Source: Octopus vulgaris
Lineage: Eukaryota
DNA: 64,000 nucleotides
NCBI GenBank assembly: GCA_951406725.2
Contig: OX597828.1
Span: 1,426,001-1,490,000, forward strand
Direction: 5' to 3'
In this document: positions 6,189 through 63,199 of the stretch, piece after piece
Layout of the letters: each line of letters starts with the position of its first letter
Position numbering within the stretch: position 1 is the stretch's first letter
Program-made: the position numbers and the translations under genes
Notes under the pieces: generated by a model
The model's input: only the letters and a program-made list of their open reading frames with translations
Told to the model about the DNA's origin: nothing
The model's database searches: none

Positions 6189-6375
6189 GAAGGTGTATGG
6201 CTCAGTGGTTAGAGCGTCGTGAGTTTCTGAGTTCGATTCTCGTTGTGTTCTTGAACAAGACACTTTATTTCACGTTGTTCCAGTTCACTCATCTGTAGAA
6301 ATGAATTGCGACGTCACTGGTGCCAAGATGTATCGGCCTTTGTATTTCCCTTCGATAATATCGGTGTCGTGGAAG
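6189..6375 (+). mobile_element. tRNA-derived SINE, diverged
   Basis: A-box-like tggctcagtggttagagc, B-box-like gagttcgattc, then ttgaacaagacacttt core. Confidence 0.7.
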
Positions 6376-6750
6376 AATCGTTACCGTGTGGGACAAAATG
6401 CTTACCAGTATTTCTTCCAACTTTGCGTTCTGAGTTCAAATGCCCACAAGGTTGATTTTGCTTTCATCCGTTCGGGATCTATAAAATAAGTACCAGTTGA
6501 GTACTGGGGTCGATGTAGTCGACTAATCTTCCCCACAAATTTCAGACCTTGAGTCTATAGTAGAAAGGAGAATTATTATTCCAGTATCGAGCTGGTAGAA
6601 TCGTTAGCACGGTGGATAAAATGCTTTGCAGCTTTTCTTCCGGCTGATTCCCTTCTGAATTCAAATTCCACCGAGGTCATCTTTGTCTTTCATCATTTTG
6701 CGATCGATAAAATAACTACCATTTCAGCATTGGAGTCGATAGAAAGAATT
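6376..6750 (+). mobile_element. Two tandem copies of a second tRNA-derived SINE family
   Basis: gaatcgttag..aaatgct..gttcaaat..gaggtc..ttt.ctttcat..gataaaataa.tacc..ggggtcgat body at ~6376-6580 and ~6588-6750; same family at 42762, 59644, 61869. Confidence 0.75.
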
Positions 6751-12033: not shown

Positions 12034-15010
12034 GATTGGATTAACAGCAATTGACAACTCAAAGCTGCCAGGTAAATATAAAATTTGGTGCTTACAGTTC
12101 GGCTTGTATCTGCGACTTTCGTGGCTACTTTTGATATATGATGTAGCACTATCACAAGTTCAAATCATTGAACAAAAATGTAATGTGGTCATTAGAAAGT
12201 GGCTAGGTCTACCTCGGATATTGAACAGTTCAACACTCTATCGTAAAAGAGGCTCATTGCAGTTGCCACTGGCGTCAATTAGTCGAAATTCATAAACTAG
12301 GGAACGTAGGAACGGTGATGAGGCTGAGAGAATAGAGAGACGTAGCAATCAGGCGTAATACACCAGATGTAAAAACGGTCAGGATGTGGAAAGTAGAAGC
12401 AGAGACCGATGACATTCTGTCTTCTCTTATACACCAAGATATGGTGGGTGCAATGCAATTTCATCGAAAGAGACTTGGTATTGCCGGTGGACTACATCTC
12501 GGCTAAGATGTAGTCCACCACCATATCTCATTCCAATCTATGATGTCTTGCCTTCGCCTATAAATCTAGTAAGATAGAACGTCTCAAAGGATGATGTATG
12601 CAAATGCGGAACGGTCGGAACACTGAAGCATATTCTTTCTAACTGTTCATTAGCATCGAACAGATATACATGGAGACACAACTTGGTTCTTAAGGTTATC
12701 TTCAATGCTATAAAGAACCAAACTACTCTCATCAACAGTGGAAAAAAAAAACCGATTGAAGAACCAACCAGAGATTTCATTACCTTCGTGTGCTCAGGAC
12801 AGCAGATCCGTTATAAGAACTAGAAGAAATTTCCTGTGAGCGACTATTGGCAGGTGGCTGCAGATTTATCAGGGTGCCAAGGATTCTTTCCCATCTCAGT
12901 TGCGAAAAACTCGGATATTATAATGTGATGTGAAAGAAAGTTGTGAATCTAGTCGATGATCTTTTTTATCAACCATAAAAGGTATTACATAGAGGGGACA
13001 CTACAACACATTGGGGACACAAAACATCAAAAAAAAATTATCGTATGATAAAATGAGAGAAAGGGTGATAATGAAAGATGAAAGTGATGTTAACTGCCCC
13101 ATCAGTCAACATCGCTTACTTGTCCTTTTTTTTTCCTATTTTACCTCGAAAATCATAAAGTCTACAAATTTAACCTCCTATATTTCTTTTAGTTTATTCC
13201 TCTTTCCCGGTGCCAATGTTCTTCTTATTAATGTATATTCATCCTCAAGTTCCTTTTCAAGTTCTTCAACCTGATTTTTTGACACTACTATAACCATTTT
13301 CTGATGCCAGCCATCTGGCATTTCTATCTTTCCCCATATTTTCAATCTTTCATATAAATATTCTTCAGGGTGGAGGCTTTGTGTTATCGCTTGTTTGTCT
13401 GTTTTCTGTTTTCTTGTTGGTGAGGAGTGGGTGGAATTGGTGTCTGCAGGAACGGGGAAGGACACAGTGGGTGAGGGTGGTGCTGGGGTGGATTGGGGTG
13501 CACAGTTACTTGCCTTTTTTCTTTTCCGCTGTTTCTTTTTCCCGGGGTTTCCCACTCTTTTCCGTCTTCGTTCACTTGACTCTCCTTTTCTTCTGTTTCC
13601 TTCTGTTCCTTCTGGGGTGCTACCGTTTCCACTGCTGTTTTCTTGGTTATCTGTTCCACTGTCGTATTACAGTTTGCTCTTATGTGGCCCTTCAGGCCAT
13701 ATTTATAACAACGAGGGGCTCTGCCCTCCACCCATACTTTCATCGTTATATCATTTGTCATAATCGACTCCGCCAAATTTTGTAGGGTTTCCATTTCTGC
13801 TTGGACGCTCATTTCCAGCGTCGCTCCTCTCTATCCTTTATCTTCTGTTATAGTCGCTTGGACAATGTCGACCTTATCTTCATTATCGCAAATAACCGCT
13901 GCTATTACTAATTCTGCCTTGATATCCGGTGGAATTCCCTCCACCCTAATTCTTGATGTCCTTCTCCCCAGATAAGTGGGTAGAAGTGTAAATTTTCCAT
14001 TTTTTATCGTCTTTGTGGCCATTCTTCTAGCAGTTTTCTCATTTATATACTGCACCACTACTGTGGCATACTTATTTCCTCTTGCGAGGAATACTATTTC
14101 TTCCTCTGTTGTTCTTAATGCCCCCTCTATCATTTCCATGTTTATTATGTATGTGCTGTTCTTGTCGTTTGCTAATACTCTGTATATTATTTTCTTTTTT
14201 TCCATTTTACTTTTTTTCCTGTTGGGCAACAACAACTCCACCTCTCCGTTCACTCTTTTTATCTTGTCCTGGCATTCCGGTAATTTTGCCAGATTTATTT
14301 CTTTTTTCACCTGCGTATGTCCTTTTCTGTAGTACCATGTCCATTCTTTCTACCGCCTCCACTAATTCTTCTTCGGAAGACGACATGTCTGACTCGCTGA
14401 ACATTCTTCTTGTTCTCTCCATTCTCAATGAGGAAAAACTAGCCGAATTAATGATTCCTTATGAAGACAACGTGGACGCCGCTCGGGCTCTAAAGATTGA
14501 CCGTTATATAAACCTCCTCGAGGAATGTGAAGACGCAGGCTGGAAAGCGGAGCATTTTCCAATCGAAGTCAGATGTAGATTTGTTGGACACAGTGTGAGG
14601 CGACAGTTGTTATCGTTAGGCTTAACTCATCGTAAAGTCAATACCACTATGAACGATATCCAAACTACAGTGGAGAAGGCTAGCCACTGGATTTAGTTAA
14701 AAAGAGACAATGAGCGATGGCTAGAGGAATATTGGGCTATATTTAATAACCAGTTGATCTAGCAAGCAGAGCCGCATATCAGTGAGGTGGGGCCGGTACT
14801 CAATGATACCGCCGAGAGGTAGGCTCCGAAATGTCGCGCATTCTCTCGTGATGACCCCATACATTTGCTGGCTTCCAGTATGTGGAGCTTTCGACTGGTA
14901 GCACTTGCATGAGCATATATATGAGAATATATATATGGTGGCTGCCCCCTCGTTATCGAGTATGGCCATTGCACGAAGCTTAATCAATGTTGTTATCGTG
15001 CAATGCCTGT
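12034..15010 (+). mobile_element. Hero-type (R2-like, RLE) non-LTR retrotransposon 3' part, interrupted at 12957-14438
   Basis: LPGKYKIWCLQFG; RKWLGLPR; YDVLPSPINL; CKCG..GTLKHILSNC..RYTWRHNLVL; RLE motif restored across the insertion as VVNLVELMIPYEDN..KIDRY..FPIEV..EKASHWI. Confidence 0.8.
12957..14438 (-). mobile_element. ORF1-only (gag-like, HAL1-like) non-autonomous retroposon, copy A
   Basis: Frameshifted ORF ~14404-13178 with LARGNKYATVVVQY, LLPTYLGRRTSRIRVEGIPPDI and zinc knuckle VEGRAPRCYKYGLKGHIRANC; no RT; 8-bp TSD ctagtcga/ctagccga; A-rich 3' end. Confidence 0.8.
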
Positions 15011-16020: not shown

Positions 16021-17319
16021 TTTGGAGACTTGTGTGCAGAATATAGAAAAAACGTGCCCAAAAGGACAGTTTTAGTCAACCGCCTATTTGTTTCTGATGG
16101 GTCGGGAGAGAAACATATATGTTGCCAGAGGTAGTTGGTATATCAGCTGAATTAAAGTACATAAGTTGTGTGGTGTAGGATGTGTTGTGTGATATGTGAA
16201 TGTATGTTGGGTGGTGGAAATGAAGTAGTAATTGGTTAACTAGATACATGCAAAAAGTTATAGTTTGATACAGTAGACAGTTATGGTTCGTTTTGATTTG
16301 AAGATGAGAAAGAAATGAAAAAAGCTTATAATATCTGGGTGTTGACCTGAAATAAATGAAAGGAAGGAGGCAAGTTGATAAATAGAGTTGAGAGTTGCAA
16401 CGATATGTTACCCATTAAATTTCTTGCGTGAGATTTCTTAGCATCATGTATAAGTCGCTTCCTTAAATTTTGTCAGTATGCCCTAGTAAATACAGCACAT
16501 ATTTAAATATGAGAAAGCTTTTAACTGTGAAAATAAGTTATAAACACATTTCTTTTATGCTTTCGATGTGCGAAAAAAGAAAAATAGACGTGAAGGAATC
16601 GCCTGATCGATGTAGTCACTCTCCTTCCCCAGTCGATAACTTTAGTCGGTAATTAAGTGATTACCGTGGTGGATGGCTAAACTTGCATATTTATACTCTA
16701 GGCGGTTCTTCTAATAAGCAATTATATTCTATGCATAGTACTGCGTAAATCTGGAGTATTGAAATGAATTTAGATGTGATAATAAACTATATAAATATGT
16801 AAACACATTCCTTCTACACCTTCAATGTGCGAGACTGCTGATTTACCGATTCATGATTTGCTAGTTGTTTCTCAGTGGTGACGTACACACTCTCCTTCTA
16901 ACGACAGATTAGAATGGTATCCAACTTCTGTATATAGTAGCCAGCAACTAAACTATTAATCGCCATACTTGCTTTAGACGGCTCGTTATGAAGTAAATTT
17001 ATGTATATTCTATGCATAACACAGCATAATTTAATAGGACCATACGCGATTTTTTCAAATGTCATTTTTATAACGGTAAATTCTGAAAATTTATTTCGGG
17101 GATGTAAGTGTAAATATTCCAAGAGATGCTGGCTTATGGCTGAGACCCAAATTGCAGGTAACCTTTCAACTTTCCCTGAAACGAAATGCCAAAAGGCAGC
17201 TGCGTTGAATGCTGTGGGTGGTAGTCGCAAACAATTGTCATGAAAACCGAAATGCACGAGGAGGTTATGGGTATAAAAATAATTTGAACCGCGTTCCTGG
17301 AATTCGTAATTTGGACATT

Positions 17320-18787
17320 CGCCTCCCTCACTTTTTTCGAGTTTGGTATTATTAATAAGGTTAGTTGCACGTGTTGTTGAGTCGTTAAACGTTGTTTTTG
17401 TTTGTTGAGATATTTCTGTTTATTGTTTGTCGCGGCCCGTTGTTCGATAAGTCAGTCGGCTTGCAACTCGGCACCTGGAGAGGCAAGTCGATACCTCCTA
17501 ACAACATCGTCGTGAGTTGGACGGAGGGCCTGGTTAAATTGCTAGGAGTCTGGTTAGGTCCGGACCTCCAGATAGAGAAGAATTGGAGCGAGGTGGCGAG
17601 CAGAGTGACCAACCTAACTCAGATCTGATCTGAGCGGTGGCTATCCCTGAAAGGGAGGGCGGAGGTCGCAAATATGTTTATCGCATTATCTACCGCCTGA
17701 CCGTCGTGCCTTGTCCCGATTCGTGGCTAAACAAAATGGAACGATTGCACTTCCGCTTTCTGTGGAAGGGCAGGAGTTCACTTGTAAGGCACTCTATCTG
17801 CTGCCAACAACTGTTAGGGATGCCGTGGCTAATGATGCGCAGATATGCGCTGAAGCTGAGGCATCTCTAGTTTTGGTGAATTGAAACCGTGGGTTAAGCG
17901 TAGACCAAAGTTGGGTGCGTGACTGGCCGAATGTCGGCAGGGACTCGTGCTTCTCTGCCGGACGGGTAATGCCGGTGGCGAGGGTTACACCTCGTCATTC
18001 TATAGAGGGCTTGTAGAGGCAAAGTGTGACGATGATCTGAGGGAAACCCTAGGCTTCAGCGAAGGTCAGCTTGCTGGTTTGTTCCGAAGGACATTCGGGC
18101 TAGGGACGTTGGACAACTTCCAATGTTACCGAGGAGTATTACCAGTTCGAGATAAACTCGCTAGGCATGGCTATTCATGCCAGTCCACTTGCCCAAGATG
18201 CGAGCAGTGGAGTGAAACTGTTCTGCACGCTATTGTGCAGTGTCCGAAAATTTCGGAAATGTGGGTCGAACGGCTGCTGTCACATTTGGGAAGAGTACAG
18301 TTGTCTTCCGAGTCCATTATAAAGATTGTTCCACCATCCTCCTTGAATAAGGAAGGCAAGGTTTGTTTTCGCGCAGTGGTAGTGATGGCGAAAGAGGTTG
18401 TTTGGAGGACACGTATGATGGGAGTGGCGACGGGTGCCTTAATCTCCGGCCCTGGTTTGCTCCGCTTGTTTATTTTCCATCTTAAAAGGAAACTAAGGCT
18501 GGAGAGGAAACGCTTGTCAGCCGATATATATGGCAAAAAAATGGAAGGAAGTGACGTGGATGTTGGGAGTGAATGAAGCCGCGTGAGTGTAAAAAATAAA
18601 GGAAACAAAAAGGTTCAGTGGTGGATCGGGGCTTGTGGGGTCGAACACGTCCCGCTCTCCATTGTGTTGTTTTTGTATTGTTCGTTCATTTGTTTATATA
18701 ATTCGTAATTTATCAACTGCTCATTTTTAATGTTTTATCATTCGATTCCCGACCCCTTTCATTTTGTATCGTCCTCTCTGTATTTAG
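17320..18787 (+). mobile_element. Tx1/L1-clade LINE: ORF2 C-terminus and 3' UTR, possibly joined to a 5' UTR by an internal deletion
   Basis: VKLLGVWLGPDLQIEKNW; WLSLKGRAEVAN; FRFLWKG; zf-RVT-like YRGVLPVRDKL..CPRC..ETVLHAIVQCP; T-rich 3' UTR. Confidence 0.85.
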
Positions 18788-18789
18788 TA

Positions 18790-19685
18790 TTCATGGCAGA
18801 AACAAAATCAATTCGTAATTTGGACGCATCACGTATGACTCGATTCTCAGAAGCGCAGAGAGAACAAGCTGTCGGCCGATTGCAAGCATGGCAGCGTGCT
18901 CTGGTTGTTGCGAAAGCGTACAATGTCCATGTCAACACCATCTATCGTCAGCAGCAGCGATACAACAACACCAACAGCACTGCAGACCGTGCCCGCAGTG
19001 GTCGCTCCCGAGTAACCACGCCCAGGGAGGACCGCTCCATCCACCTGCAACAGCCCCGTGATCGCTTCAGACCGGCCAGCGTGACAGCACGCGAGGCCAT
19101 TGGCACTGGACAGCGACCCATCAGCGACGACACGGTACGACGTCGACTGGCCGCCAACAACATGCGTTGCCGTCGTTCTACTCGGCGGCATGTTCTCACC
19201 CCTCGCCACCATGAGGAACGATCACAGTGCGCTACACAACACCGACATTGGTGATATCAACAGTGGAGATTGATAGTCTTCTCTGCTTTCAGCCCGGATT
19301 TGAACCAAATTGAACACATGTGGGATGAAATTTAGAGAAGCTGAACCAGGTGGTTCCAAAGCCGACAACTCGTGTGGAACTAGAGGCAGCTTTCCTCAGG
19401 GTTTGGGCACAGGTGCCAATGGCTTTTATGAACCGCCTCATGCACTCCTTGTACCAACAGTGTATGGCTGTTTTGAACACCGAGGGAGGGCATAAACGGT
19501 ATTGAACATTTCACGCCTACAATTTCGATGTGCTGGATCCGCCCACTACCAGAACACATGACAACGACACAAAGTGCATCCAAGAAATTGACTTTTTCAG
19601 ATTTATCAAAATTTATCTTTGACATAATGAAATTAAAACATATTTCACTGTCACACACGTCTCGCATTTCTTTTGCGGTTCAGTG
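18790..19685 (+). mobile_element. Internally deleted Tc1-like transposon (HTH retained, most of DDE domain lost, right TIR only)
   Basis: MTRFSEAQREQAVGRL..DRARSGRSRVTTPREDR..ISDDTVRRRL; SPDLNQIEHMWDE; ends ttttgcggttcagtg followed by TA. Confidence 0.85.
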
Positions 19686-20039
19686 TATAACCATAAGTAT
19701 CGATATTTGTCTGTCTTGAAACAACGTTACAGTTCTTCAAATAATTTTACCAAATTTTTGGGGAAGATAGCCCAGAATAATTCATGTACAAAAGAAAAAA
19801 AATCTCAGGTTCAGTATCTCCTTGGAGTAACACAACGTTGAGTAAAAAAAAGGGACGTAGAGGAACTGAAAGTTGTAGAGGAATAGAGGTTGAGGAAGAG
19901 TATTAGCATGATGTATAGATGAGCTGTCTTTGACATTACAAACTATTTTTCTCTCTCTTTAGCTTTTCTTTAATCTCTCTATCTCTCTCTTATAAACTTT
20001 CTCATCTTATATATGTGTATGTATGCATGCATGGAAATG

Positions 20040-35190: not shown

Positions 35191-35378
35191 AAAATTTCCA
35201 AAAGAACACAACACTTTCATTCTCAACCAAATCCACCTTAGAGTAGACTATTACTTTTACAACATTCTACAGTTTAACAGACATAGAACATACCTGGATA
35301 GCCCTAACAACCCCCAAAATAGAGCCTGTAACATTTTTGAAGCCACAGCTTTCCTCACTTTGTCCCAAGAAAAATTTT

Positions 35379-38300
35379 TGTGGGAGAGTCCTGACCACCT
35401 CCACGTGACCAAAAGTGGACCGACGCATTTCAATAAAATAAAATAACTGTGTGAACTGTAGGCAGTTGACAGTCTCCGTTTTTCTGTTCCGTTTCATCAT
35501 TTTTGATCGCTGTTAGACGTGAGTAACATTGTTTATTATTTGTTGAAGGTCTCCCCTCGTGGGTGTACCTACGATTGTTGATTGTTGAAATTGCTGGTTT
35601 TTTACATACGAGTTTGTTGATTTGTGTTTTTGTTCCCATTTAGGGGAGAACCTGAGAAGAGAAGAAAAATGGAAATTGAACCAGCAGAAGGCCACAGTTA
35701 TGCGGCAGCAACTGGCAGAGGAGTGGACTCGGATGCTTTGGAGGTTCGGAGGTTCGCGAAGTAAAAGTAGAACCGAAGAAGCTAAAAGAGTGCGTAAAGT
35801 TACTGGAAAACGAAGGCTATAACCTAAAATTAACGCCACCAGGTGAACTAACAAAGAGTGTAAGAAAGAGAACAGTGATATACAAAACATTGAAAGTGTC
35901 ATCCCGAAAAATTGAAATCGAAATTATCGAAGCCATTGAAGAGTGCCTAAAAGAAGTCAAAAAGTTCATGTTCATCACAAGAGGAAGAAAGTATGGCACA
36001 GTGGAGGTGTGATTCGTGACGGAAGACTCCACTGTAGCCATAAAGACGGAAGAGTGGGTACTTTTGCCAACATACTGTGGCAAGCTTGTTGCCAGGATGA
36101 GAGTAGGAAAATTGCCATCGGAAATAAACGAAACATGGTTGGTTGCAGCGATAATGTTCAATATGGAAGAAGACGCAAAACTACTGAGAGTGACGGGAAC
36201 TTTTAGTTGAATCAATAGGGTTATGGCATAGAGATGGCCATACAAGCAAGTTTAAGTGACCTAAACAAAATTGGAGAGGAAATAATTTTACCCGCGGATG
36301 TGAGGCTGAGAGTGCTACCTATGTGGAGAGAAAGGCTATATGAAGGCGAGGTGTCCCCAGAAAGAAAAGGAGGAACAACAGATGAAACAGTCTGAGGAGA
36401 GGGTGGACGAAGTGGTACCGGATGATGTGAAAGAGACGGCAATAACAGAGGAAGCATTCACAGTAGTTAAAAAAACGAAAAAGAAAAAAAAGAGTAATCT
36501 CTCCGTCGGAGAGGCAGAAAAAGAAGAAAGAAGTAGATAAGGAAGTTGTGAAGGCAGTTGAGAAGGAGGTTGAGAAGGTGGTTGAGAAGGAGCTTGAGGA
36601 GTAGCTCGAGGAGGAGCTTGAGAAAGGGGAGACAGTAGCAAGGAGAGGAGGAGGAGACAGTAGCAAGTGGAGGAGGTAGATTTAGGCGGTGTAGAAAGAC
36701 AACAGCATGAAGGTGAAACAGCGACACTAACGAGAAAGGAGGAGGATAAAGACAGAGAGAAGGCGCCAAGAGTGGAGCAAAGAAAAAAACAAACAAGCGA
36801 GAAAGCCGAAGATGCATAAGTGGAATTTCGTGACATACGCTAAGAGTACAACAACTAAAAGAAAGCTAACGAAGTTTAAATTCATAATAAGGGTTAAGTT
36901 GCCTACAGAGATTTACTCGGAAAATGTGAAGGCTATTGTAATTGATAAAGATAACAGGTTAAAGGAAATGTTTGGAAGGGATATTGATCCACTAGAAGTT
37001 TTGGTGGAGTCTGACGAACTGCCGCCAGTTAAGAGAACTGGAACCATTTATGAGATATTAAAAAAAGTAAGTAAAATTGTTTTTTAAAAAAAAAGAGAGG
37101 ACAAAAATGATGTTAATGGAAACAAAGCAAAGGACAGGAAAAGATCATAAACTGTGCGTAAAAACATTCAGATGGTACTGTATAAGAGTGAGGCTCATGC
37201 AGCCATTTCATTTTTTCATTATTATTTAACATTTTTCTTATTTTCATTCTTTTTGTGTTTTTTGTCCCCACTGTGGCTTTCTGTCTGTCCTTGTGCTGTC
37301 CCCGCTGTGTAAAAGCTTGAGTGCTTAAATAAAGAAAATAGTCGACAGTCAGTAGTTGACAGAGTGGATCGTTTATATTGGATTACTGTGTTAGTTTAAG
37401 ATCGTACTTAGGTTTGGCGTAGTACGGAGTACATTCTGCGTGAACATATTAATTCTGCAAAAGGTTATTCTAGATAACCATATCTAATATTTATTTGGGT
37501 AATATTATTCCTACACCAATCTACACTCCAACGTCATCATAACATTATTGGCGGCGAGGATATTCGAACCCAGACTGGATAGATTGTTGGTTGGAACATG
37601 GAAGAATTACTGGCTTCAGTAATTGAGTTACAGAAACAGCAGCTACAACAGCAACAACAGTAACAACAGTAACAATAGCAGTTGGTGGAATTGCAAAAGC
37701 AACGGCAACTGTTAATACAACTGCAACTCAATAAAACAGAAAATATATCGAATTCGTTCACTCCTGATATGGTCACAAACTCCATCGGTGATTTCACATA
37801 TAACCCGGATGAGGGTATTACCTTTCCTGCATACTACAGAATGTACGAGGAAACTTTTAAAGATGAGTGCTTGGATTGGCAAGATTAGGCAAAAACCTGA
37901 CTTGAGGTTGAGAAATTTGACCCCAGCCAAACACGAAAAATACTGCAACTCTATATTATTGAAGAGACCGGGGAAGTCTGTTTTAAAGAATCTGTTGAAA
38001 CCCTTTCAAAGATTTTCAGCGAGAAAAGCTCTTTATTTAATACGCGCTGGTAATGCATGAAAAAAAAGAGGACGATTTTATTACATACGGTAGAATCGTT
38101 AAGAGGGAATGTAGGAAATTTAAAATTAACGAACTAACACCAGACATGTTTAAATGTTTTGTTTTTTGTTCAGGAAAGACGCAGAAATTCGTAACCGAAT
38201 TCTGACTAAATTAGAACAGAACAAAAGCTAACATTATAAGAAATATCTGAGGAATGCCAGAGAAAAATAAACCTAAGGCACGATACGGAACAAATTGAAG

Positions 38301-41300
38301 TAAGAAACTCCTCCCATATAAAGTCCGTGTGACCGAAAGTAAGAAATGAAAAACAAAAAATTAACTCACATATACAATCGGTGCAACCGAAAGTAAGTAA
38401 TGAAAAGCAGAAAATTAACCCATGTTTTGGATGTGGAGAATTACACCACAGATTAAATTGGCCTTATAAAAATCGAAAATGCTTCAAGTGTGGTAAAATA
38501 GCTTATAAAAAATTACACTGTAAAACAAAACCTAAAAACGGTTCAACAGAAAGATCATGTAAACTGTTTATCGGTTACAGGAAATACGAAAGTGTCTCAA
38601 AGGAAATTTGTGCATGTAAAAATTAAATATACAAATGTAAAATTACAGTTAGATACAGACAGTGACATTACTTTAATTAATGAAAGCACATGAAAACAAA
38701 AACCTACACTGCAGAAAACATCGAAAATTGCCTGTGATGTCTCTGGGATAAAATTAATTTTTAAAGGCAAAATTATTTGTAACGTTACATTTCGCGGTAA
38801 GACGACAAAAACCAAAGCTTATGTATGAAAAAATACGGGCAGCCTTTTTAGAACTGACTGGATGGAACTGTTCGACTTCTGGGAGTTACCTGTAAATAAT
38901 TTTTCTAAAAATGCACTGGGGTTGCGCGCTAGTTCAAATACTGAGTCAGAAAAAAAAAAAATTTTAAAGAAGCGAAAAGATTGTTCCCTAGTGTTTTCTC
39001 GGATGAGTTGGGCCGATGCAATAAATTCAAAGCCAAATTTCAGGTGAAAGAAAATACATTACCAGTTTTCAAACCCAAACGTAATCTACTGTTTGCAGCA
39101 CTGGAACAGATAGATAAAGAATCAGACAGACTGGGAAAATGGGAGTTATTGAAAAGATCGATTACTCAGATTAGGCGAGCCGAAGCGTGTACGTTAAAAA
39201 GAATAATAAAGTACGTGTTTGTGCAGATTTCTCGATGAAGCTAAACGAATGTTTAAAACAGCATAACTACTCATTACCTAGCCCAGAGAAACTAAATGGT
39301 GGTAAATTGTTCTCAAAATTCGATCTGTCTAATGCCTATTTACAGATACAAGTAGAAGACGAATGTTCTAAGCTACTAACAATTAATACAAGTTTAACCG
39401 GCTTCCGTTTTGCATAAAAGTTGCTCTGGCTATATTTCAACAAGTGATGGATACGATGCTTGCAGAGTGTGACTTCGCGATGGCCTATCTGGATGATGTA
39501 TTAATTAAAAGTGTATCCCAGGATCAGCATATCGGGCATGTAAAATATGTGTTCGAAAAAATAAGAGATTACGACTTCACTTTGAGTGAGAAGTGTGAAT
39601 TCTTCTTATCTAAAATTAAATATAATATTTACGACAAATCATTGATTAAAAAAATGGTCGTCGACCGGATCCGTCGAGGGATCTTGCGATTGAAAATATT
39701 CCCTCTCCGACAAATATATCTACCTTACAAGCTATTTTGGGACTTCCCAACCATTATCAAATTTATATACCAAATATGCATAAGGTAAGAGCCCTACTAA
39801 ATAATCTACTGAAAAGAGATGTAAAGTGGAATTGGTCTCAAAATTTTCAGAAGGCGTTCGACGAAATTAAAAAGATATCAACATCAGATTTGTCTGCAGC
39901 ACATTTCGATCCTGCAGTGGAGATTGTTGTAACGTAACCTCAGATGCTTCTGGGTACGGTATCGGAGCAGTAATGCTGCATAAATATAGAGATGGTAACA
40001 TGAAGGCTGTGGTTTATGCTTCACGTTCGCTACTACCTGCCAAAAAATTATAGCCAAATTGAAAAAGAGGCTCTAGCGGTTATTTTGCCGTAAAAATTTT
40101 CATAGATGTTTATACGATAGAAATGTTCGATTACAGACTGATCATCGTCCATTATTATCTATATATGGGTCGAAGATAGGAATATCTACCCATACTACTA
40201 CTAGGTTGCAACGCTGGTGTACTATATTACTAAACTATAATTTTAAGATGGAGTTTATACCACTTAAGAAACTAGGACACGCTGATTGTTTATCAAGGCT
40301 GATTTCGAAAAATACTGGACTGTTGGAGGACACTGTGATTGCTGCGTTGCTAGCGGAAAATGAAACTAAAAGTGTTTTGTGTAATATACACGAACTACCA
40401 GTTACATTACAAGATATAAAATTAAAATCGGTAAACAATCAATTCATTTAAAAAATGAAAGAAATGCTGAGGGCTAAAAGAGATAAAATGTACGTTTTGT
40501 TGAACGCAAATTCGAACCTGTTCTCGATTTGTGACAATTTGTTAATGTACGCACAAAGAATCGTAGTGTCAGCCACATTACAGAAGTGATTATTGAAGGA
40601 ATTTCCCATTGGTCACCCAGGGATTTCAAAAATGAAATTGTTAATGAGATGTTCTGTGTATTGGCCAAGAATGGACTGTGAGATTGAAGAGTTAGTGAAA
40701 GCATGCAGAGGTTGTGCCTTAGCTGCATAGGCACCTCTCACTAAATGGCAACCGTGGCCCAAAAACAGATATTCCATGGTCCAGACTGCGTGTTGATTAC
40801 GCAGGTCCACTTAAATCGTTTTGGTGGACAGTTTTTCAAATTGGGCTGACGTGCATAAAGGTAAAAAGCCGACATCTGCGATTACAGTAAACTTTTTAAA
40901 CGAATTCTTCGTCAAATATGGTATTCCTGATACCATTGTGTCTGATAATGAAACCCAGTTTACGAGTTCAAAAAAGTATTTTTTAAAGTCGTATAGACAT
41001 GGTAAAGAAAGCTGGGAATACGGTGTAATTATTAAACAAATTTGAAAAACATTATTCCTGGTAAAAGGAAAAATATTCGAACATAAAAGACATATAAACC
41101 AACTTAAATAAAGATGTATGGAAGAAACGGTTATAAGAGATGAAATTCCCATGGAAGTACTATTCGAGACGTTTGAGGTACCAAATCCTAACAAATTGAA
41201 ACTACACGCTCAAGTAACAGAAAAAAGAAAAAAACGTAAATACTGGAATCAAACCCTAAACGTAAAGGATATTAAAACTCTGGACGGAGTTTAATTCTCA

Positions 41301-41627
41301 AAAAGTGGGAAGTTATAGGAGGCTTATTCTCAAAAACAGGGAGATATTGTGGCAGGAACTTGACCACCCCCACGTGACCAAAAGTAGACTGACAATAAAA
41401 TAAAGAAGCAGTGTTAACTGCTGGTAGTTGACAGTCAGCAGTTGACAACGCTTGTCTTTTGTATCGGATTACTGTGTTAGTTTAATATCGTGCCTATATT
41501 TTGCGTGGTACGGAGTACGTTCTGCATAAACATATTAATTCTTCGAAAGGTTATTCTAGATAACCATATCCAACATTTATTTGGGTAACACTTTTCCTAC
41601 ACCAATCTGCACTCCAACGTCATAACA
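35379..41627 (+). mobile_element. Gypsy LTR retrotransposon 1 (Mag/K02A2.6-like), decayed; 5' LTR 35379-37544 split by an insertion, 3' LTR 41348-41627
   Basis: TG..CA LTRs; PBS tggcggcgagg at 37549; gag FTYNPDEGITFPAYY with CCHC knuckles; protease LDTDSDITL; RT FSKFDLSNAYLQ, AYLDD; RNase H DASGYGIGAV; integrase GHPGISKMK..CRGC, VDYAGP, PDTIVSDN; purine tract before 41348. Confidence 0.9.
35475..37339 (+). mobile_element. ORF1-only (gag-like, HAL1-like) non-autonomous retroposon, copy B, inserted in the Gypsy 5' LTR
   Basis: FITRGRKYGTVEV; LLPTYCGKLVARMRVGKLPSEI; CYLCGEKGYMKARCP; VEKE repeats; no RT; ends aataaagaaaat; 11-bp TSD agttgacagtc/agtcgacagtc. Confidence 0.8.
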
Positions 41628-42526
41628 TTATTGGCGACGACATATTCAAACCCCTGAAGATATAACAAAAATATTGTCTGTAAATGTAATGCCAAAAACA
41701 CTCGTCCATCAGAGTATATATAGGATTCACCAGATTTAATCCATCACCCATATAAATTCCAGACTCCTGAAAAGAGAAGTACCACTTCACTCTCCAGACA
41801 TATTTGACATCGATTTTTTGTTTAATAGTTCTTCGCAGTGAATAGTATATCGAAACTTTCAGCCGTATATAAATTACAGGAGATTTCCAAATTCTTCTAA
41901 ACCACTACTTTCCACTTCCCTCATAGCCTCCCAACATCTTATGTAGCCTCTTATTTCTCTTACTTACCAAAAGTACTTAATACTACCCACACCTTTGGAT
42001 ACTAACCTGTCAACCTTTACTCCCTCCCAATTCACTTCCCTCTGTTCAATTTCATACAATTCTGCAAACCATTGCACTCCCCCTCCAGCACCAACCCAAT
42101 CCCTCTGACTCATTAACCACTGCTATATTGACTATAACCCACCCCACTCTATCCACCCCTCAATCTTCTCTCATACCTCTCTACATACCTTAGTAATCTC
42201 CTTCAGCCACTGACCCAGCTAAAACTTATTTCCCTCAAATAACGGCCATTTCCTTTCTCACTCTCTCAACCATCAACTCTATAACCTTCATACAAACTAA
42301 CACAATAAACTACCATTTACACACTACCTACAACACCCTCCCCCTTCCTTCCACTTTCCATGTCTACTACTTTAACTCCCTATCATTAACCCCTCACTCT
42401 TGATATTTATTTTCTCCTCTCACTATTCTCCATCTAAAAACGTCACCAACTCCCCCTCTAATACACTTAACTCTCCACAAAATCATTCCATCTTGTTTCC
42501 TCTAGCACCTCAAATGTAAGATCTCT

Positions 42527-42761: not shown

Positions 42762-42987
42762 TTTATTTCTTTATTGCCCACAGGGGGCTAAACATAGAGA
42801 GGACAAATAAGGACAAAGAGATTAAGTCGATTACATCGACCTCATTGCGTACTTATTTTGTCGACCCCGAAAAGATGAAAGGCAAAGTCGACCTCGGTGG
42901 AATTTAAACTCAGAACGTAAAGACAGACGAAATATTGCTAAGCATTTCACCCGGCGTGCTAACGTTTCTGCCAACACGCCGCCTTAT
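42762..42987 (-). mobile_element. Full-length tRNA-derived SINE with Tx1/L1-like 3' tail
   Basis: Head ggcggcgtgttggcagaaacgttagcacgccgg; 15-bp TSD ataaaactttatata at 42747-42761 and 42988-43002; tail tgtcctctctatgtttagccccctgtgggcaataaag. Confidence 0.9.
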
Positions 42988-50470: not shown

Positions 50471-51835
50471 TGTGTGTGTATGTATGTATATATGCATGTA
50501 TGAAAGTATGTAATTTTGGTATGATTGCGTATGTTTGTTTTTATGACACTGTACTTGTGATGCATACATACACATTATTATTCAAGCAGGATTTCAATTT
50601 ATACATACATATGTCTACCCACGCATATTTGCGCGCGCGCCCATACACGTTTTGTGAATGTATGAGTAGGTCTCTGTATGAAAGTGAAAGAAACGTGTCA
50701 CGTGTCTTTGAGTGTCTGTGTGCTTGTATGTATGTATGTATGTATGTATGTATGTATGTATGTATGTGTGTGCATGTGTGTGTATGTGTGTGTGCCTGCG
50801 TGTGCATTTAGACACATAAGTAATTTTTTGAGTTCATATAAGCATATATAAAATTTACTGTGCTTATGTAGAAACTTATTTACCTCCACACACACGCACA
50901 CGGTATAAACACACACACGTACACATATGCAAAAGCTACCGTATTGCAAATATACAGACCAATTCAATCAGAGCTAACCTAAGCTAAGCAATAGCAACAT
51001 TCAGACACACATACCCTTTCAACAGAAATGGCCAGCTCTGGTTAAATTTAGTAACCTGTGATATCGAAAGCCAAGTAATACAACTGAATACTTGTTCTAT
51101 TTTACCTTTCTTTAATTCTACGTAATTTCAATTTTTTTCCTACCAGAACTGTCCCATTCATTCACAAACAGTACGAACGAATGAATGACAGATGGGGGAT
51201 TAAAAAGTTCTGTCAACACTTTAGCTATCTTTTCATTTTGACTTGAATGCATGTGTCCCTATTTTAAGTACGTTTCACACAACTAGAATCCATAGAAAAA
51301 AAACACATATCCGGGATATTCTACATAAATATGAGTACGCACACGCACGCTTCGATACACACAAATACATATTCACATAGACAGCTATATAGGTCAATAA
51401 AAGATAATTTTGTTGTATATTTATTTACACCGTACAAGTTTTGTTACATGTACGACATGAAATTAATTCACCGAATTTTGAGTTGTTTCTGAAGATACAT
51501 AGAACTTGGGGAAAATTTTATGCTCAGATAGACTGCACATTTACTCTTCGTGTGTTTTCATAAATAGGGATACGATGATGACTTTTCGTTGTTATTTTAT
51601 GGATTATTTCGGCGATTGCTTCATTGCCAACTTAGTGTAGTTTTGTTCATATATCTATGATTTCGTCTCGTAAATGAATAACCTTTCTCAGAGTGGTACT
51701 CTGATAAAAGCTTCTGTTTCCACACTGGAATCGGTATATTTTAAAGGTGACACACAATTATATGTCTGGTAAGTGTTTGATATTTTAGCGATAGTGTATG
51801 CAAAAAAACTTCAGGGAAGCGCAAAAAAATCAAAA

Positions 51836-54800
51836 TGTGGTATTCGTGGAGAGAATTGCAGATGAGGTAAACGGAAGTGAAGACTGGAGGGGCCGGCGGA
51901 AGAGCCACGGGGGCATGCGTGGGCAGAAACCACGTGAGGCAGTTCGATGAGAGACAGCGAGTGTGGAAGGACATGTTTTTTTCTTGACGGCGATCGCTCA
52001 TTCCGCCTCGGTCAACAGGTAAGGTCTCTATTTCTTTCTCACTTTTACTTCTTTTTCTGTTGTCTTTTTCCTCCATCACTCAACAAGCTATTTCGGCCAA
52101 TAACAAAAAAAAAACAAAAAAACAAAAAAACAAAAACGATTGATGAGTGTTGTCCGTATTTCGAACGATATGGTCAAGCCGTTTTGTGGTGACACGGATA
52201 TAGTCACTTGGTTGAAGATGAAGTTGGTTGCGAACTCCACAGGATAAACGACTTAGCGAGTTTTATATCGCTGTACCTAGATGGTTCGGCGTTAGCGCTA
52301 TACCTAGAAATGGAAGAAAGGGACCAACTTAGCGCGGAAAAAATAGAAATCCGTTTGATGAGGGCCTTTGCCGAAGGAATGTTCGAAGCGTACGCTCGCC
52401 TGGGGAAAGCAAAGTGGACCGGCGAACAGGTCGACGTATTTGCCAACGAACTCAGGACATTGGCTAAACTGGCGGGATATGAAGGTGAATCACTGGACCG
52501 AACGGTTAAGTTAGCGTTTGTGACTGGCTTACGTGACCACATGTCGATCGAGTTGCAAAAGCTGCCGAACGTTAACTCTATGGCGATGGCAGACATTATA
52601 TCTTGGGCTCGCGTGCTAGTTTCGTGTTGCGGGATGACGCCGGTAGCAGCGACTGCAACAACGAAAAGTGGCCGAGCAAAGAGAGGGGTCAAACAAGGAA
52701 CGTGTGCGACCATTCAAAGGACAGTGTTTCCGGTGTCAGGGCTCACACATGGTACGAGACTGCAAGTCACCCAAATCTGAGATCATTTGCTACTGGTGTC
52801 GAGAAACAGGATATATAGCCAGCGAATGTCTGCGGGGAAACAGTCTGAGACTATTACACTGGTAGTTATCCCTTCGGATCAATAGAGGCGCGTTTATCGT
52901 TACCTGTAGTCGACATTCTGGTGGAGGGGAAGATGTCGCGAGCCCTTGTGAACACGGGCTGTACGACAACCTCGATGACTCCAGAAGTGGTAGAGACGTG
53001 GAGTGGAGTGAGCAATGTAAAGGCAGTTGACGGAAGAGAGGTACACTATGAAGGCGTTACAGACGCGCAGATTGTGGTGCAGGGAACAAAGCTGACGCTG
53101 CAAGCAATTGTAGTTGGCCACTTAGTGGACGAGACTGACGTGGTGATGGGGATGGATGCAATCTCCCGTTTGTGAGGTGTCACTGTCAACGAGGCCGGTG
53201 TAACGTTCGGGTTGCGGAGAAACCGTGTATGGCGAGGCCGTGCATTGGTGAGAACCGCGAAGAAAACTATGCTGCACACACCATTGAAGACCAGGACTTT
53301 CGGGCTGTCTTCGATGGCCAGAGATGGACAGTGGAGTGGCACAGGAAGGGAGAGCCCCCGACGTTAAAAAATAAAGTGGGCTGTTATAAGCGTACTCTGA
53401 AAGGAGATGCCAGAAGTGAGTTCGAGGGGGAGGCGGAGCGGTGGATTAAGGAGGGTATATTGATCCCTTGGGAAGAAGTAGAGAGCGGAGTCCTGGCGTT
53501 GATAGCAGTGATACAGCCCACAAAGCATAAGGTCAGGCCAGTGCTTGACTTCCGAGAGCTGAATAACCACGTATCATGTCATTACAGGCGACGAGGCCAC
53601 AGATGTCTGCGGAGACACCTTGCGAGGGTGGAGGAAGATGACAGGGGCATCCACGATCGTCGACTTGAAGTCGGCATACCTGCAGGCGCATGTGACTGAG
53701 AAACTGTGGAAGTATCAGCTTGTCAGGTATAAGGACCGGACATACTGACTGACCAGGCTGGGCTAAATTCAGCGCCAAAGATTATGGCAACAATTATCAA
53801 GGCCATCCTGGGAAAGGTGGACAGAGTAAAAAGGGCCACCAAGTCGTATATCGATGACATCCTGGTGGATGAAACCGTAATGCCAGCAACGGAGGTCATA
53901 GGCCACCTGAAGAGTTTTGGACTGATCGCCAAGCCACCAGAGGCAATGGAGGGAGGCGCTGCACTGGGTCTCAAGCTATGGAGAGACAAGGCTGGCGCGT
54001 TGATGTTCCGGCAAGGGAACGAGATACCCGAACTGGGCACCAGCATGAGTAGACGGGAATTGTTCTCGGTATGTGGGAAGCTGGTGGGACCACTACCCGA
54101 TTGCAGAATGGCTACGGACAGCATGTAGCTTTATCAAGAGACGAGCCGAAGGAGCGATGTGGAACGATAAAGGTGGGAAGAAGACGATACAGGAAGTCTT
54201 GGTCAGAGTGAGAGCAGAGGATCCAGTAAGAAGTTGGTGTATTCCCAAATCAAAGAGCGGGATCGTATGGTGTGACGCGAGTGGCATCGCAATATGTGTT
54301 GTTTTGGAAGTGGGAGGCGTCGTGGTGGAAGATGCAGCCTGGCTCAGGAAGACGGATGACTGCAACCATATCAATGTGGCGGAGTTGGATGTTGTACTGA
54401 AGGGAGTGGACCAAACCTTGAAGTGGGGGCTGCGCACCATAGAAATTAGGACCGATTCGGCCACTGTACTTGGTTGAGTGACGGCAGTCATCACCAATGA
54501 GCGGAGGGTGCGAACCAAAGGGGCCGCAGAGATGTTGGTAAAGCGTCGATTGGGGATACTGCGTGAACTAGCCGCTGAGTTCGACATGAAGCTGAGCATG
54601 ATCTTTGTGCCTTCCAAGAAGAACAGGGCAGACGTCCTGACCAAGGTAAAGCGAGCCTGGTTGCAGGTGCCAGAGGACGCGGAACAGGCTGTGGCTGCAG
54701 TATTCCGTCTGAGTAACTTGGAGTTGAGGAGATTGCATACCATGCATCACATGGGGGTGGACAGGATGTTGTTCCTAGCCAGAAAAGTTGACTCCGATGT

Positions 54801-56015
54801 AACAAGACGGAGCGTGCAGAGAGTGGTTAGCAGCTGTGACAGGTGCCAGTCCATCGACCCTGCTCCAGGCGTACATGAGGTGAGTATTATTCCAGTGGGT
54901 CACAACTGGAAACGACTGGCAGTGGACATAACACACTACCGGCAGGGGACATACCTCTCAATGGTTGACTGCGGACCGGGGCGGTTGGCCATATGGAGGG
55001 AGATGAAGACGTGAGAGTACTAAATGAGATATTCCTGGAACGAGGCCCTGTGGATGAGCTGCTTCTGGATAATGGCACTGTATTTCGCTCGGAGGTGCTG
55101 AAAGAAATGCTTGATGGGTGGCAGGTCAGCCGCTTCTTTAGGGCTGCCAAGTGGGAATGAGGTGGTGGAAAGGCATCATCGTACCATCAAGACTATGGCA
55201 GAGAGGGTCCACATTCCACCAATCGAGGCCGTATTTTGGTACAATATGTCGCCCAGATCAGGACAGGCTGAGGAGTCGGTGTCACACAGCAGAATATTCA
55301 GGTACGAGTGGAGGCATCCGTGTACTGCATCAATGCAATCCGGGGCAGAGGAAGAGCATGCCTTCGTGCAGGTCGGGAAGAAGTTTGGGTAAAACCCCCA
55401 TACGCACAGTGCACATCACGATGGGGAAAGGGAACAATAACCTTCATCAATTCGAAGAACAACATTTCTGTCGATGGTATGCCACGCCACGTTTTGGATA
55501 TACGGAAGATTGTCAATGCCTCTGAGGATGGAACCAGTAGCAGTGGGCAAGAAGATGAAGACAGCAGTAGTAGGCAAGATGATGAAGCAGCATGCCAGGA
55601 ACTCAGGCCAGTCCTAGGGTCGCACGGCGACCACAGAGGGAGCGGCACCCTCCTCTCTGGTTGGCTGATTATGAAACCAGTTAAAGTGTGAATTCGGGAG
55701 GGAGGAGTGAGTGGGAAAGCCTGTAGATCAGCGGGGGCGTGTGGTGCTTGTGGTGTTAAGGGCTGTGATGAGTTATGTGGTGTTCGTAGAGAGGATTGCA
55801 GATGAGGTAAACGGAAGTGAAAACTACAGGGGCCGGCGGAAGAGCCACGGGGGCATGCGTGGGCAGAAAGCACGTGGGGCAGTTCAATGAGAGACAGCGA
55901 GTGTGTCTTTTTCCTGACAGTGATCGCTCACTCATCCCTCCTCGGTCAACAGGTAAGGTCTCTGTATTTCTTTCTCCCTTTTGCTTCTTTTCTGTTGTCT
56001 TTTTCCTCCATCACA
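51836..56015 (+). mobile_element. Gypsy LTR retrotransposon 2, compact and decayed; LTRs ~51836-52085 and ~55776-56015
   Basis: LTRs share gcagatgaggtaaacggaagtgaa..ggggccggcggaagagccacgggggcatgcgtgggcagaaa; gag CFRCQGSHMVRDC, CYWCRETGYIASEC; protease ALVNTGC; RT VRPVLDFRELN, DLKSAYLQ, YIDDILV; RNase H WCDAS, HINVAELD; integrase HTMHHMG..CDRC, LAVDITH, LLDNG. Confidence 0.92.
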
Positions 56016-56027
56016 CACACTCACACG

Positions 56028-59000: not shown

Positions 59001-59643
59001 TGTTACTCTAACTATGATTCAAATGTAAGAAGACAGTCAGTTGTCTCTTTCTCAATAAATACCTTGAGAGAAAGGGAGAGAAAGGAAGGGTGACAGTGAG
59101 CATAGAATATATTTCGAGGACGATTGTCATAGAAAGAACTTAGCCTTTTAGACAATACAAATATTTGTTCAGGCAGAGGAATAAGCAATGTTTCCCTTAT
59201 TGTCAAAATACATTTGGCAGCTGAAAGACGGGTCAATTGAAATCATATAAATATAATGGGTATTGTAGCAACATATGATATACCCGTTTGTTGCAGTATT
59301 AAATATTTTCCTCAAAAACTGGTCGGAATGTAATATTTCAAAGTTTGAAAATCGCCATTTTTAATTCTTGTATTTTGATCACTCTCAATACAAAATATGC
59401 CTTCTTTGAATTGCGCAAGTTTTGTAAATTAATCTATGCTGTATCTTATGAAGTTTCCAAGGTCTTTCGTCTCCTTCGACGATCTGTATAACATATCATA
59501 CATATCCTTTGTTGCATTGATCAAGATTTTCCACAACGGATTAATCGATATTCACAATTACAAAGTTTGGAAATCGTTATTTTTAAAGTGAAGTGTGGCA
59601 AATTAAAAATTTTAAACTCTTTTATTATCTCCCATTTTAATAT

Positions 59644-59857
59644 TAGTTTCAGTTTTTTTTGCACAAGGCCAGAAATTTCGAGGGTGGACGTAAATCGATT
59701 ATATCAAACACAGTACTCAACTGGTACTTACTTTATCAAGCCCGAAAAGGATGAAAGACAAAGTCGACCTCGGTGAACTTTGAACTCAACGTAAAGATGG
59801 ACGAAATGCCGCTAAGCATTTTTCCCAGCGTGCTAACAAATCTGCCAGCTTGCCGCC
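59644..59857 (-). mobile_element. tRNA-derived SINE, family of 42762 with a different tail
   Basis: cccgaaaaggatgaaagacaaagtcgacctcgg..gaaatgccgctaagcattt..gctaac...ctgccagcttgccgcc. Confidence 0.85.
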
Positions 59858-61868: not shown

Positions 61869-62064
61869 CAAAGGCAAGCTGGCAGAAACGTTAGCACGCC
61901 GGGCAAAATGCTTAGCGGCATTTCGTCCGTTTTACGTTCTAAGTTCAAATTCTGCCGAGGTTGACTTTGTCTTTCAACCTTTCTGGGTCGATAAAAATAA
62001 GTGCACAGGGATCGATGTAATAGAATTACTTCCCTTACACGAAATTGTGCCAAAATTTGAAACC
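61869..62064 (+). mobile_element. tRNA-derived SINE, family of 42762 with a different tail
   Basis: ggcaagctggcagaaacgttagcacgccgggcaaaatgcttagcgg; 11-bp TSD aatattaatga at 61858 and 62065. Confidence 0.88.
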
Positions 62065-63199
62065 AATATTAATGATAGCCATACTGTTACTTCTAATACC
62101 ATCCATTTCCATGAAGGTGAAATAAGCCTTCACTCCTTAACCCTTAACACACGCATCAATATCAAACACCTTAGCAAAATTTCACCAGATACGCACTGAC
62201 TGCTTCTATGAATTTTACATTGTGATATCTCAAAGAAGCAATCATTACGCATACCAAAGAAATAATCGTAGAACCCATCCTCTTATACATGAACAACTCA
62301 CAAAAATTTTCAAAGTAATAAATCCTGGCTTCGCAGTCAGTGAAGCGATTGTATGAATCAGTGTTGCTTACTCTACACACAACCATCACATATTGCATCC
62401 AAAAGAACCCCATTTGATTGAGAAGCATATATTCACTCGCCAACAGGCTTCAAATGCTAGAATTACAGACTCATTGTTTCCTTCTTCCTCTTCTACCGTT
62501 CATCTGAATTCCTTCCATTCAGATACGACTTACTTATTTCTCCTCTTTGGACCCCTATTGTGTCTCAACTATTTGTTCCTAAACAAACCCTTTCCCAAAT
62601 CTTTCTTCCCACATCTCTAACTCTTAGGAATTCCTTTTCTGTTAACGTTTTACTTGCTAGCATTCACCTACAGGTGTCCAAATTCTGCATCAATTATTCA
62701 TCAATCTTACCTGTTTGCGAGGAACTACAATGGTCATGGGTATACTCATTCTACGGGATATTACATCTATATAATTTTTTTGCTATAGCTCTGTTTCGAA
62801 ATGTTTATTTTAAATATACAATGGTCCCGTTAGTCTTTCAGTTGATGGTATTGAGTCTTGAAACTGTAAAAAAATTCATATAACAATTTGCGAGCAACAC
62901 TCTCGGTAGTAACTGGTATACCACGATGCAATCACTGCTTTACTTTATTTTTTCAGGTGAGAGTGGCAAGACAGTGTCTGTGTAGGTTGGTGTAAAAGAA
63001 ATATCAACGGGCGACTTTCAAGAAAGAGCACTGGTGCATGGTTTCTATGTTTTTTTTTTACTGATGTTTAAATCCTTCGCCTACATACATAGACGGAAGA
63101 TGTACAAAGTCAATATAATCCAACACGCGCGCACACACACACACATACATACATACATACATGCATAATAATACATGCATACATACATACATCTGTGTA

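Follow-up and report, generated by a model that had tools for sequence, protein, structure and literature searches.

Four retroelements of three kinds, namely a tRNA-type SINE, two elements that encode only an ORF1-type protein (A and B) and an L1/Tx1-type LINE, end in a homologous tail of ~40 nt in one stretch of Octopus vulgaris DNA (the window: 64,000 nucleotides, positions 1,426,001 to 1,490,000 of contig OX597828.1, assembly GCA_951406725.2). The tail consists of a pyrimidine core led by GTCC, a short self-complementary stretch closed by a C-G pair, and an A-rich end without a long poly(A). A 3' module common to the SINE, the two ORF1-only elements and the LINE is supported by the position of the core, by profile scans and by comparison with shuffled tails. 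As judged from their sequences, the four elements likely represent an animal L1/Tx1 system of the stringent type, whose dependants are partly protein-coding and partly non-coding. Common SINE/LINE tails, ORF1-only LINE derivatives and Tx1 LINEs that target DNA transposons are each known separately.

A shared 3' tail

The elements and their tails are as follows, in window coordinates.

12957..14438, minus strand: ORF1-only element A, ~1.48 kb, with a broken ORF1 (14422-13178) and a 3' UTR of ~220 nt
12949-12956 and 14439-14446, flanking: target duplication of A, 8 bp with one mismatch, which defines the ends of A
12957..13019, minus strand: tail of A, with core 12984-13000, stem-loop 12972-12983 (3 bp, 6-nt loop) and an A-rich end without an exact AATAAA
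17317..18809, plus strand: L1/Tx1-type LINE copy, internally deleted, with both flanking duplications, the C-terminal part of ORF2 (17446-18576, zf-RVT) and a 3' UTR of ~230 nt
18770..18809, plus strand: tail of the LINE, with core 18770-18786; judged against most related contigs, three substitutions have decayed the stem-loop (18787-18797) and AATAAA
35475..37338, plus strand: ORF1-only element B, ~1.86 kb, with a 5' UTR of ~195 nt, a broken ORF1 (35669-37087), a 3' UTR of ~250 nt and an 11-12 bp duplication
37279..37338, plus strand: tail of B, with core 37297-37313, stem-loop 37313-37326 (4 bp, 6-nt loop) and AATAAA
42762..42987, minus strand: full-length tRNA-type SINE in AT-rich DNA, with duplications of 14-15 bp (42747/8-42761 and 42988/9-43002)
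42762..42830, minus strand: tail of the SINE, with core 42789-42805, stem-loop 42776-42788 (4 bp, 5-nt loop) and AATAAA at 42770-42775

The 3' ends were set from target-site duplications, independently of the motif, and are uncertain by 1-3 nt in the A/T-rich junctions. Duplications flank all four elements (A 8 bp, B 11-12 bp, SINE 14-15 bp, LINE 16 bp). Measured from these ends, the opening G of the 17-nt core lies 39-43 nt from the 3' end in 4/4 elements (40, 41, 42 and 40 nt at the chosen cuts). A 17-column profile built from any three of the cores, in a frame picked by eye, placed the left-out core at rank 1 of 127,963 non-training positions in 4/4 trials, with a thin margin for the LINE core (14.7 against 14.6, 0.1 bit). 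The earlier note on this DNA had proposed the likeness from the SINE, A and B tails and a Tx1 17-mer. All of these were found where it placed them, together with the stems at 42776-42788, 12972-12983 and 37313-37326, and the leave-one-out ranks put the similarity of the four tails beyond chance.

Pairwise alignments were compared with block shuffles of the last 44 nt (12-nt blocks), from one tail each for A, B and the module-bearing SINE type. Five of the six element pairs are above chance (1-22/2000 shuffles reach the score), among them SINE and LINE (17/2000, with the decayed window copy of the LINE) and A and B (2/2000), the latter despite ORF1 proteins just 27-33% identical. The similarity of the B and LINE tails is not significant (122/2000, or 185 with 8-nt blocks), nor do these two elements align above chance at their 5' ends (433/1000 shuffles). 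Homology of whole UTRs, suggested by plain shuffles (0/500), was mostly lost under block shuffling and is largely compositional. When the tail pattern was scanned elsewhere, it gave 0 matches in viral contigs, 12 in metagenomes and 2 in prokaryote genomes, and 0/14 of these loci resembled the window.

The LINE copy and its family

The LINE had been described in the earlier note as truncated before the hairpin. It is bracketed by a perfect 16-bp duplication:

17301..17316, plus strand: left copy of the duplication, inside a Tc1-like element, with a flank that resembles the empty-site loose ends of related contigs
18810..18825, plus strand: right copy, a perfect match to 17301-17316

The element thus extends to 18809/10. 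Public contigs from 4 of 24 listed runs were compared over 18200-19000, and 32 of 2,126 contig pieces were listed; 16 of these cover 18788, including the locus of the window itself, and among the listed pieces none of the 15 others (the non-self contigs) stops at 18787. A deletion junction at 18788 is ruled out by the contigs that run through it and by the duplication at 18809/10.

The summed depth in the four runs favours C at 18788 (77/77, 220/276, 38/38 and 88/101), C at 18789 (77/77, 169/276, 31/38 and 71/101) and T at 18803 (102/143, 273/381, 43/43 and 106/106). These majority letters restore a 3-bp stem around a 5-nt loop, plus AATAAA. When the last 60 nt are folded with them, the stem reaches a pair probability of 0.84 and a possible lower helix ~0.5; the stem letters are those of the SINE stem, which has one extra inner pair. 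We infer from the listed differences that the other stem letters of the family are unchanged, there being 509 further difference rows beyond these. Because most related contigs read the restoring letters, the window copy is taken to have decayed in stem and AATAAA. The absence of motif and hairpin from Tx1 ends, which would have told against a common tail, is not what these contigs show. An untruncated LINE with the family stem strengthens the case for the shared tail.

The window copy is not itself autonomous. It consists of ~130 nt of T-rich 5' sequence (17317-17449) followed directly by late ORF2, beginning where the RT ends; such a copy may stem from a single deletion or belong to a bipartite non-autonomous form. 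An L1-type reverse transcriptase with a C-terminal zinc motif is supported by the zf-RVT domain of the copy and by a relative, P0003 (56-67% identical), which carries RVT_1 and zf-RVT domains and matches human L1 ORF2p at 1e-21 and R2 at 1e-12, human L1 ORF2p being the closest among solved structures. The Tx1 label would follow from the domains of P0003 and its match to L1 ORF2p, together with the target behaviour described below, and not from a tree. No named Tx1 reference was among the protein matches returned, and the protein-atlas neighbours are eukaryotic clusters. A scan of metagenomes with the LINE protein confirmed 0/367 candidate stretches, and no RNA dataset containing the LINE stretch was among the public runs listed.

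An exact 12-nt copy of the LINE target sequence lies inside the LINE's own 3' UTR (18700..18711, plus strand), 110 nt before the junction, and related contigs pass colinearly through it. A short tailed element that inserted at the target beside an older LINE may have left it as a scar.

Insertion of the LINE family in a Tc1-like transposon

The sequence that follows the LINE is its target:

18826..19690 (right end approximate), plus strand: right part of a Tc1-like DNA transposon, with an HTH_Tnp_Tc3_2 match (E 4e-6) and high contig depth

The Pfam match, at E 4e-6, is below the curated cut-off. Among the listed contigs, 14 of the 15 non-self ones run past 18811 into the same Tc1 target, nine of them by at least 31 nt; after three records of one locus are merged, these nine represent at most 7 distinct loci, one possibly an orthologue. 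In each run, 17-24 contigs have loose ends ahead of 18811, which mark the empty Tc1 site. In two records of one locus the match breaks off at 18825, where the duplication ends, and ~0.9-1.3 kb of other sequence follows, which suggests a tandem insertion. Another type of tail is found at the same Tc1 site in the consensus of 6 contigs in one run (agreement 0.69), where the upstream sequence is unlike that of the LINE and is followed by core-like sequence, a stem, a similar loop and an A-rich end. The insertion site lies upstream of the transposase frame.

These observations favour a preference of the LINE family for one site in a Tc1-like transposon, as described for Tx1-Mar in Mariner-N4_AMi (PMC4494074). 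Some room is left for a single LINE-Tc1 composite spread by the transposon (hitchhiking) instead of targeting, as the contig comparison covers the 3' part of the LINE and the start of its target (18200-19000).

ORF1-only elements A and B

Each of A and B has an ORF1-type protein, no ORF2, a LINE-type 3' end and a target duplication, which is the layout of an ORF1-only non-autonomous LINE. No ORF2 remnant was found in either at E<=10. B is inserted in an LTR whose twin (41347-41653) preserves the site without B; the two LTRs belong to an old LTR retroelement (35378-41653, LTRs ~85% identical, B in the first) with primer-site-like sequence past the first LTR. A is inserted antisense in the nuclease region of another LINE (12600-12956 and 14439-14760), which has a zinc motif and a restriction-like nuclease motif, the latter split mid-motif by A. 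Presumably this host belongs to an RLE-type clade, as its motifs suggest; Pfam gave no match.

The ORF1 proteins seed a family of 575 protein clusters (50% identity; E<=0.001). Species names were available for 14 of 20 homologues looked up, and 14/14 are octopods (Octopus vulgaris, O. bimaculoides, O. sinensis and Argonauta hians). The predicted structure of one member, P0008 (40-row alignment, mean pLDDT 77), contains two RRM-type domains, with Z 8.9 at 46-134 (rmsd 2.6 over 82 residues) and Z about 8 at 133-217, and tandem-RRM proteins are the top Foldseek matches of the model. L1 ORF1p is absent among the fold matches listed for P0008, an absence that excludes nothing. A zf-CCHC domain was detected in 10/40 family members and Transposase_22 in 0/40 (E<=0.05). 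On the predicted fold, the ORF1 of the A/B family is of type I (tandem RRM fold plus CCHC knuckle). ORF1s with RRM and CCHC have been described for the Tx1 clade and also for several others (PMC5203782). EN or RT domains were found in 0/18 scanned ORF1 matches, and no ORF1-ORF2 fusion was found among proteins of 1092-3115 aa in a word-based, weak search that also yielded no longer ORF1 relatives. We regard A and B as possible "half-Tx1" elements, whose ORF1 would be of Tx1 origin.

Pieces of the ORF1 family are also contained in the octopus gene models P0024, P0059, P0069 and P0127 (WD40, LDL-receptor-A, C2H2 zinc-finger and another). These are probably mis-joined models, and possibly cases of exonisation. 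Within the elements themselves, the start of the B 3' UTR (37087-37103) closely resembles the core in reverse complement and came second in 3/4 profile scans, and a second, upstream copy of TGTCCCC is present in both A (13019) and B (37263).

The SINE and its sister copies

The SINE is of the tRNA-derived type, with Pol III A and B boxes (read by eye) in a tRNA-like head, and is short, non-coding, repeated and flanked by a target duplication. Neither ARAGORN nor Rfam finds an intact tRNA in it, and no Rfam family matches it. The window holds five copies with a common head and body, four of which have other ends:

6362-6580, 6590-6740, 59630-59857 and 61873-62075: sister SINE copies, with head and body in common with the SINE at 42.9 kb

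Three of the sisters end in another tail (ATT-like end), which the fourth apparently lacks for the most part. The same SINE body thus comes with at least two tails and probably has two partner LINEs. Since the module is present in 1/5 copies, the change of sequence falls near 42826, and the SINE upstream of the tail does not align to the LINE, A or B UTRs (371-448/500 shuffles equal), the simplest reading is that the SINE would have gained its tail by a tail swap. Separately, SINE positions 42801-42811 are predicted to pair with a body segment at 42852-42862 (5/500 block shuffles do as well), and a C that completes a G-C pair in this helix is T in the four sister copies.

SINEs are reported to make up 11.6% of the O. 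vulgaris genome, and the octopus SINEs OR1 and OR2 are cited as CORE-SINEs. The octopus families OK, OR1 and OR2 are abundant and tRNA-headed, like the window SINE; no partner LINE is given for them in the literature examined, so far as it covers them. These tRNA-derived families were reportedly described by Ohshima and Okada in 1994.

The hairpin and its possible covariation

Aligned by eye and in register, the stems of the four tails share a C-G closing pair. The next pair is C-G except in B, where it is G-C, and the third is A-T in the two ORF1-only elements and G-C in the other two; the loops are of 5-6 nt and end in T. In this by-eye register there are two double changes, at the second and third pairs (A and B). 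The earlier note had described a covarying hairpin in which pairing is kept. Stems are indeed present in the SINE, A, B and the majority letters of the LINE; the covariation itself is not significant among four sequences (8/12 cells pair; 254/500 shuffles equal), in an alignment that held the decayed window copy of the LINE and had the SINE stem set one column off. A 3-bp stem at the tail position arises in 12-24% of shuffled tails, in a test tuned after the data were seen. Pair probability in the last 60 nt is ~0.33 for the SINE stem and below 0.3 for those of A and B; the B stem appears in the whole-UTR fold of B. Folding of the entire UTR gives A, B and the LINE no advantage over shuffles (z -0.59, 0.33 and 0.08). 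Thus, the hairpin is marginal and its covariation suggestive. A long-range helix between UTR start and tail was considered and is not claimed (A 10/500 and SINE 5/500, but B 144/500 and LINE 139/500).

Proposed mechanism and alternatives

The tail is probably an RNA handle. ORF2 proteins of a group of Tx1-type LINEs would pick their templates by it and start reverse transcription there: with core and hairpin bound, ORF2p would begin priming ~40 nt downstream of the former. A and B would make ORF1p themselves and depend in trans on the ORF2p of a LINE, and the SINE would have taken its tail by swap from a LINE close to the one in the window. Stringent LINEs bind their cognate 3' stem-loop, and zebrafish L2 proteins discriminate by the loop (PMC4176376); in one plant L1 lineage an end of ~45-50 nt with compensatory changes is common to LINEs and SINEs (PMC3472496). 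Several related LINE families, each serving its own dependants, would be likelier than one enzyme, because targets, duplication lengths, stems and loops differ.

The chief alternative, which we consider unlikely, is that the tail was kept by descent as a signal for 3'-end processing (upstream UGUA plus AAUAAA), the hairpin being incidental and the enzyme relaxed. UGUA and AAUAAA act in polyadenylation, and the tails do contain such elements: all four have AATAAA or a near form, and three cores (A, B, LINE) contain TGTA. The weakness of the stems and the non-significant covariation also fit this explanation. Ordinary cleavage, however, falls 10-30 nt past the hexamer and is followed by poly(A), whereas the junctions here lie ~3-9 nt past it and no long poly(A) has been copied. 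Moreover, the conserved core is longer than such signals, and the SINE, without TGTA, retains both core and stem.

It is also quite unlikely that A and B are not halves of the Tx1 group at all, their ORF1 having come from another RRM+CCHC clade, or the elements being LINE copies minus ORF2, with a similar tail gained or kept separately. The occurrence of this ORF1 type in several clades agrees with such an origin, as do the finding that 0/20 homologues looked up are named as Tx1 ORF1, the fading under block shuffling of the similarity of the A and B UTRs to the LINE upstream of the tail (30-115/600), and the fact that the ORF1 homologues were compared as proteins. Against it, two divergent elements both pass from the ORF1 stop to a short UTR without a trace of ORF2, the 3' UTRs of A and B align with each other above block shuffles (14-15/600), and the Tx1 clade is among those for which the ORF1 type is described. 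Four Logan contigs of one ORF1 cluster are 1849-1930 bp long, near the 1.86 kb of B, a weak point that concerns lengths only.

The earlier note had joined the elements into a three-tier system using one signal. The shared module stands, and a single driver appears doubtful, given unlike targets and duplications and stems in A and B that differ from those of the SINE and LINE. It is accordingly improbable that the LINE, A, B and the SINE are all moved by a single Tx1 ORF2p that chooses its targets loosely, even though module and spacing are the same in all four and the targets of A and of the LINE have a common hexamer within 1-2 nt of the junction. Loose choice has a parallel in the crocodilian SINEU-1 and -2, which show a preference of only 13-23% for the target of their Tx1 partner (PMC4494074). 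The four targets here are unlike and the duplications range from 8 to 16 bp, as given above, while the LINE family itself enters one target in nearly all the listed non-self contigs (14/15). The loops also differ, a feature by which the zebrafish L2 proteins discriminate, and 80 L1-Tx1 consensus families are reported for O. vulgaris; 421 insertions in 13 L1-Tx1 families are listed as recently active. A chance resemblance between pyrimidine-rich, A-ending UTRs is scarcely credible and already largely refuted: the wider UTR similarity is largely compositional and the Tx1 core came first by 0.1 bit only, but all four left-out cores ranked first, their distance from independently set ends is fixed, and the LINE family letters shift the LINE tail towards that of the SINE.

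With the tail read as an RNA handle, a broader and quite tentative picture can be drawn from the sequences. Octopods may host a stringent animal L1/Tx1 lineage with a conserved, structured 3' tag instead of poly(A). Target-specific ORF2 proteins would read this tag, and both a major SINE and a radiation of "half-Tx1" families, ORF1-only and numbering hundreds, would exploit it, the stems and loops of the latter co-evolving with their helpers. The copy at 18700-18711 might then mark the gain of the tag, by insertion of a short tailed element at the target beside an older LINE.

Comparison with known systems

In the stringent pairs UnaL2/UnaSINE, ZfL2, CR1 and RTE, as described in PMC4176376 and PMC3747384, a tRNA-type SINE carries the short tail of the LINE with a predicted stem-loop, as it does here. 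The octopus case differs in its L1/Tx1-type partner, its stem of 3-4 bp, the lack of a terminal microsatellite and the presence of the tail on ORF1-only elements. None of the 58 SINE/LINE pairs in Table 1 of the survey names Tx1 or octopus, and the L1-tailed SINEs in that survey are only three, all from green plants or algae (PMC3747384). In these, namely monocot L1 lineage 1a (LINE1-1_ZM) with ZmSINE2/3, and Chlamydomonas L1-1_CR with SINEX-3, the LINE is of the L1 clade, and its conserved end, ~45-50 nt long and variable in the letters of the stem, is also carried by SINEs (PMC3472496, PMC3747384). Compared with them, the octopus case is from an animal, shows a target preference and has a weaker hairpin.

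Like A and B, the elements HAL1, HeT-A and Ag-Sponge have one ORF1 protein, a LINE-type 3' end and target duplications, without ORF2; the parents given for them are L1, Jockey and CR1, and Tx1 is not among these (PMC5786205, PMC5753468). Mammalian HAL1 proper has a Transposase_22 (type II) ORF1 and poly(A). The A/B family, with Transposase_22 in none of the 40 members and no long poly(A), is not HAL1 proper.

Crocodilian Tx1-Mar with SINEU, and Xenopus Tx1L in Tx1D, resemble the octopus case in that a Tx1-type LINE resides in a DNA transposon and a SINE is inferred to depend on it (PMC4494074). SINEU-3 in Mariner-N4_AMi has a 16-nt duplication, like the octopus LINE, and tandem insertions around it, which are likely for the octopus LINE too. 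SINEU is tied to Tx1-Mar by its target, whereas the octopus SINE is tied to the LINE by its tail and its target differs; the same account reports that no LINE with the 3' end of SINEU-1 was found (PMC4494074). The openly accessible full-text literature that was searched gave no report of an animal L1/Tx1 LINE whose structured tail is shared with a SINE; Repbase and Dfam may already annotate such families.

The ancestral state of L1-group LINEs, either stringent (reading a specific RNA end) or relaxed (reading poly(A)), has been argued from the three SINE pairs of plants and algae (PMC3472496). With its short tag and natural variants of the stem, an animal L1/Tx1 case would make the question testable. 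An octopus SINE would also gain a partner LINE, Tx1 would join the likely parents of ORF1-only parasites, and many octopus proteins now called "uncharacterized", some of them fused into host gene models, are explained as retroelement ORF1.

The window as a whole is repeat-rich animal DNA. A second LTR retroelement lies at 51835-56017, with direct repeats at 51835-52082 and 55775-56017 that are 86% identical, and with a match to an integrase zinc-binding domain.
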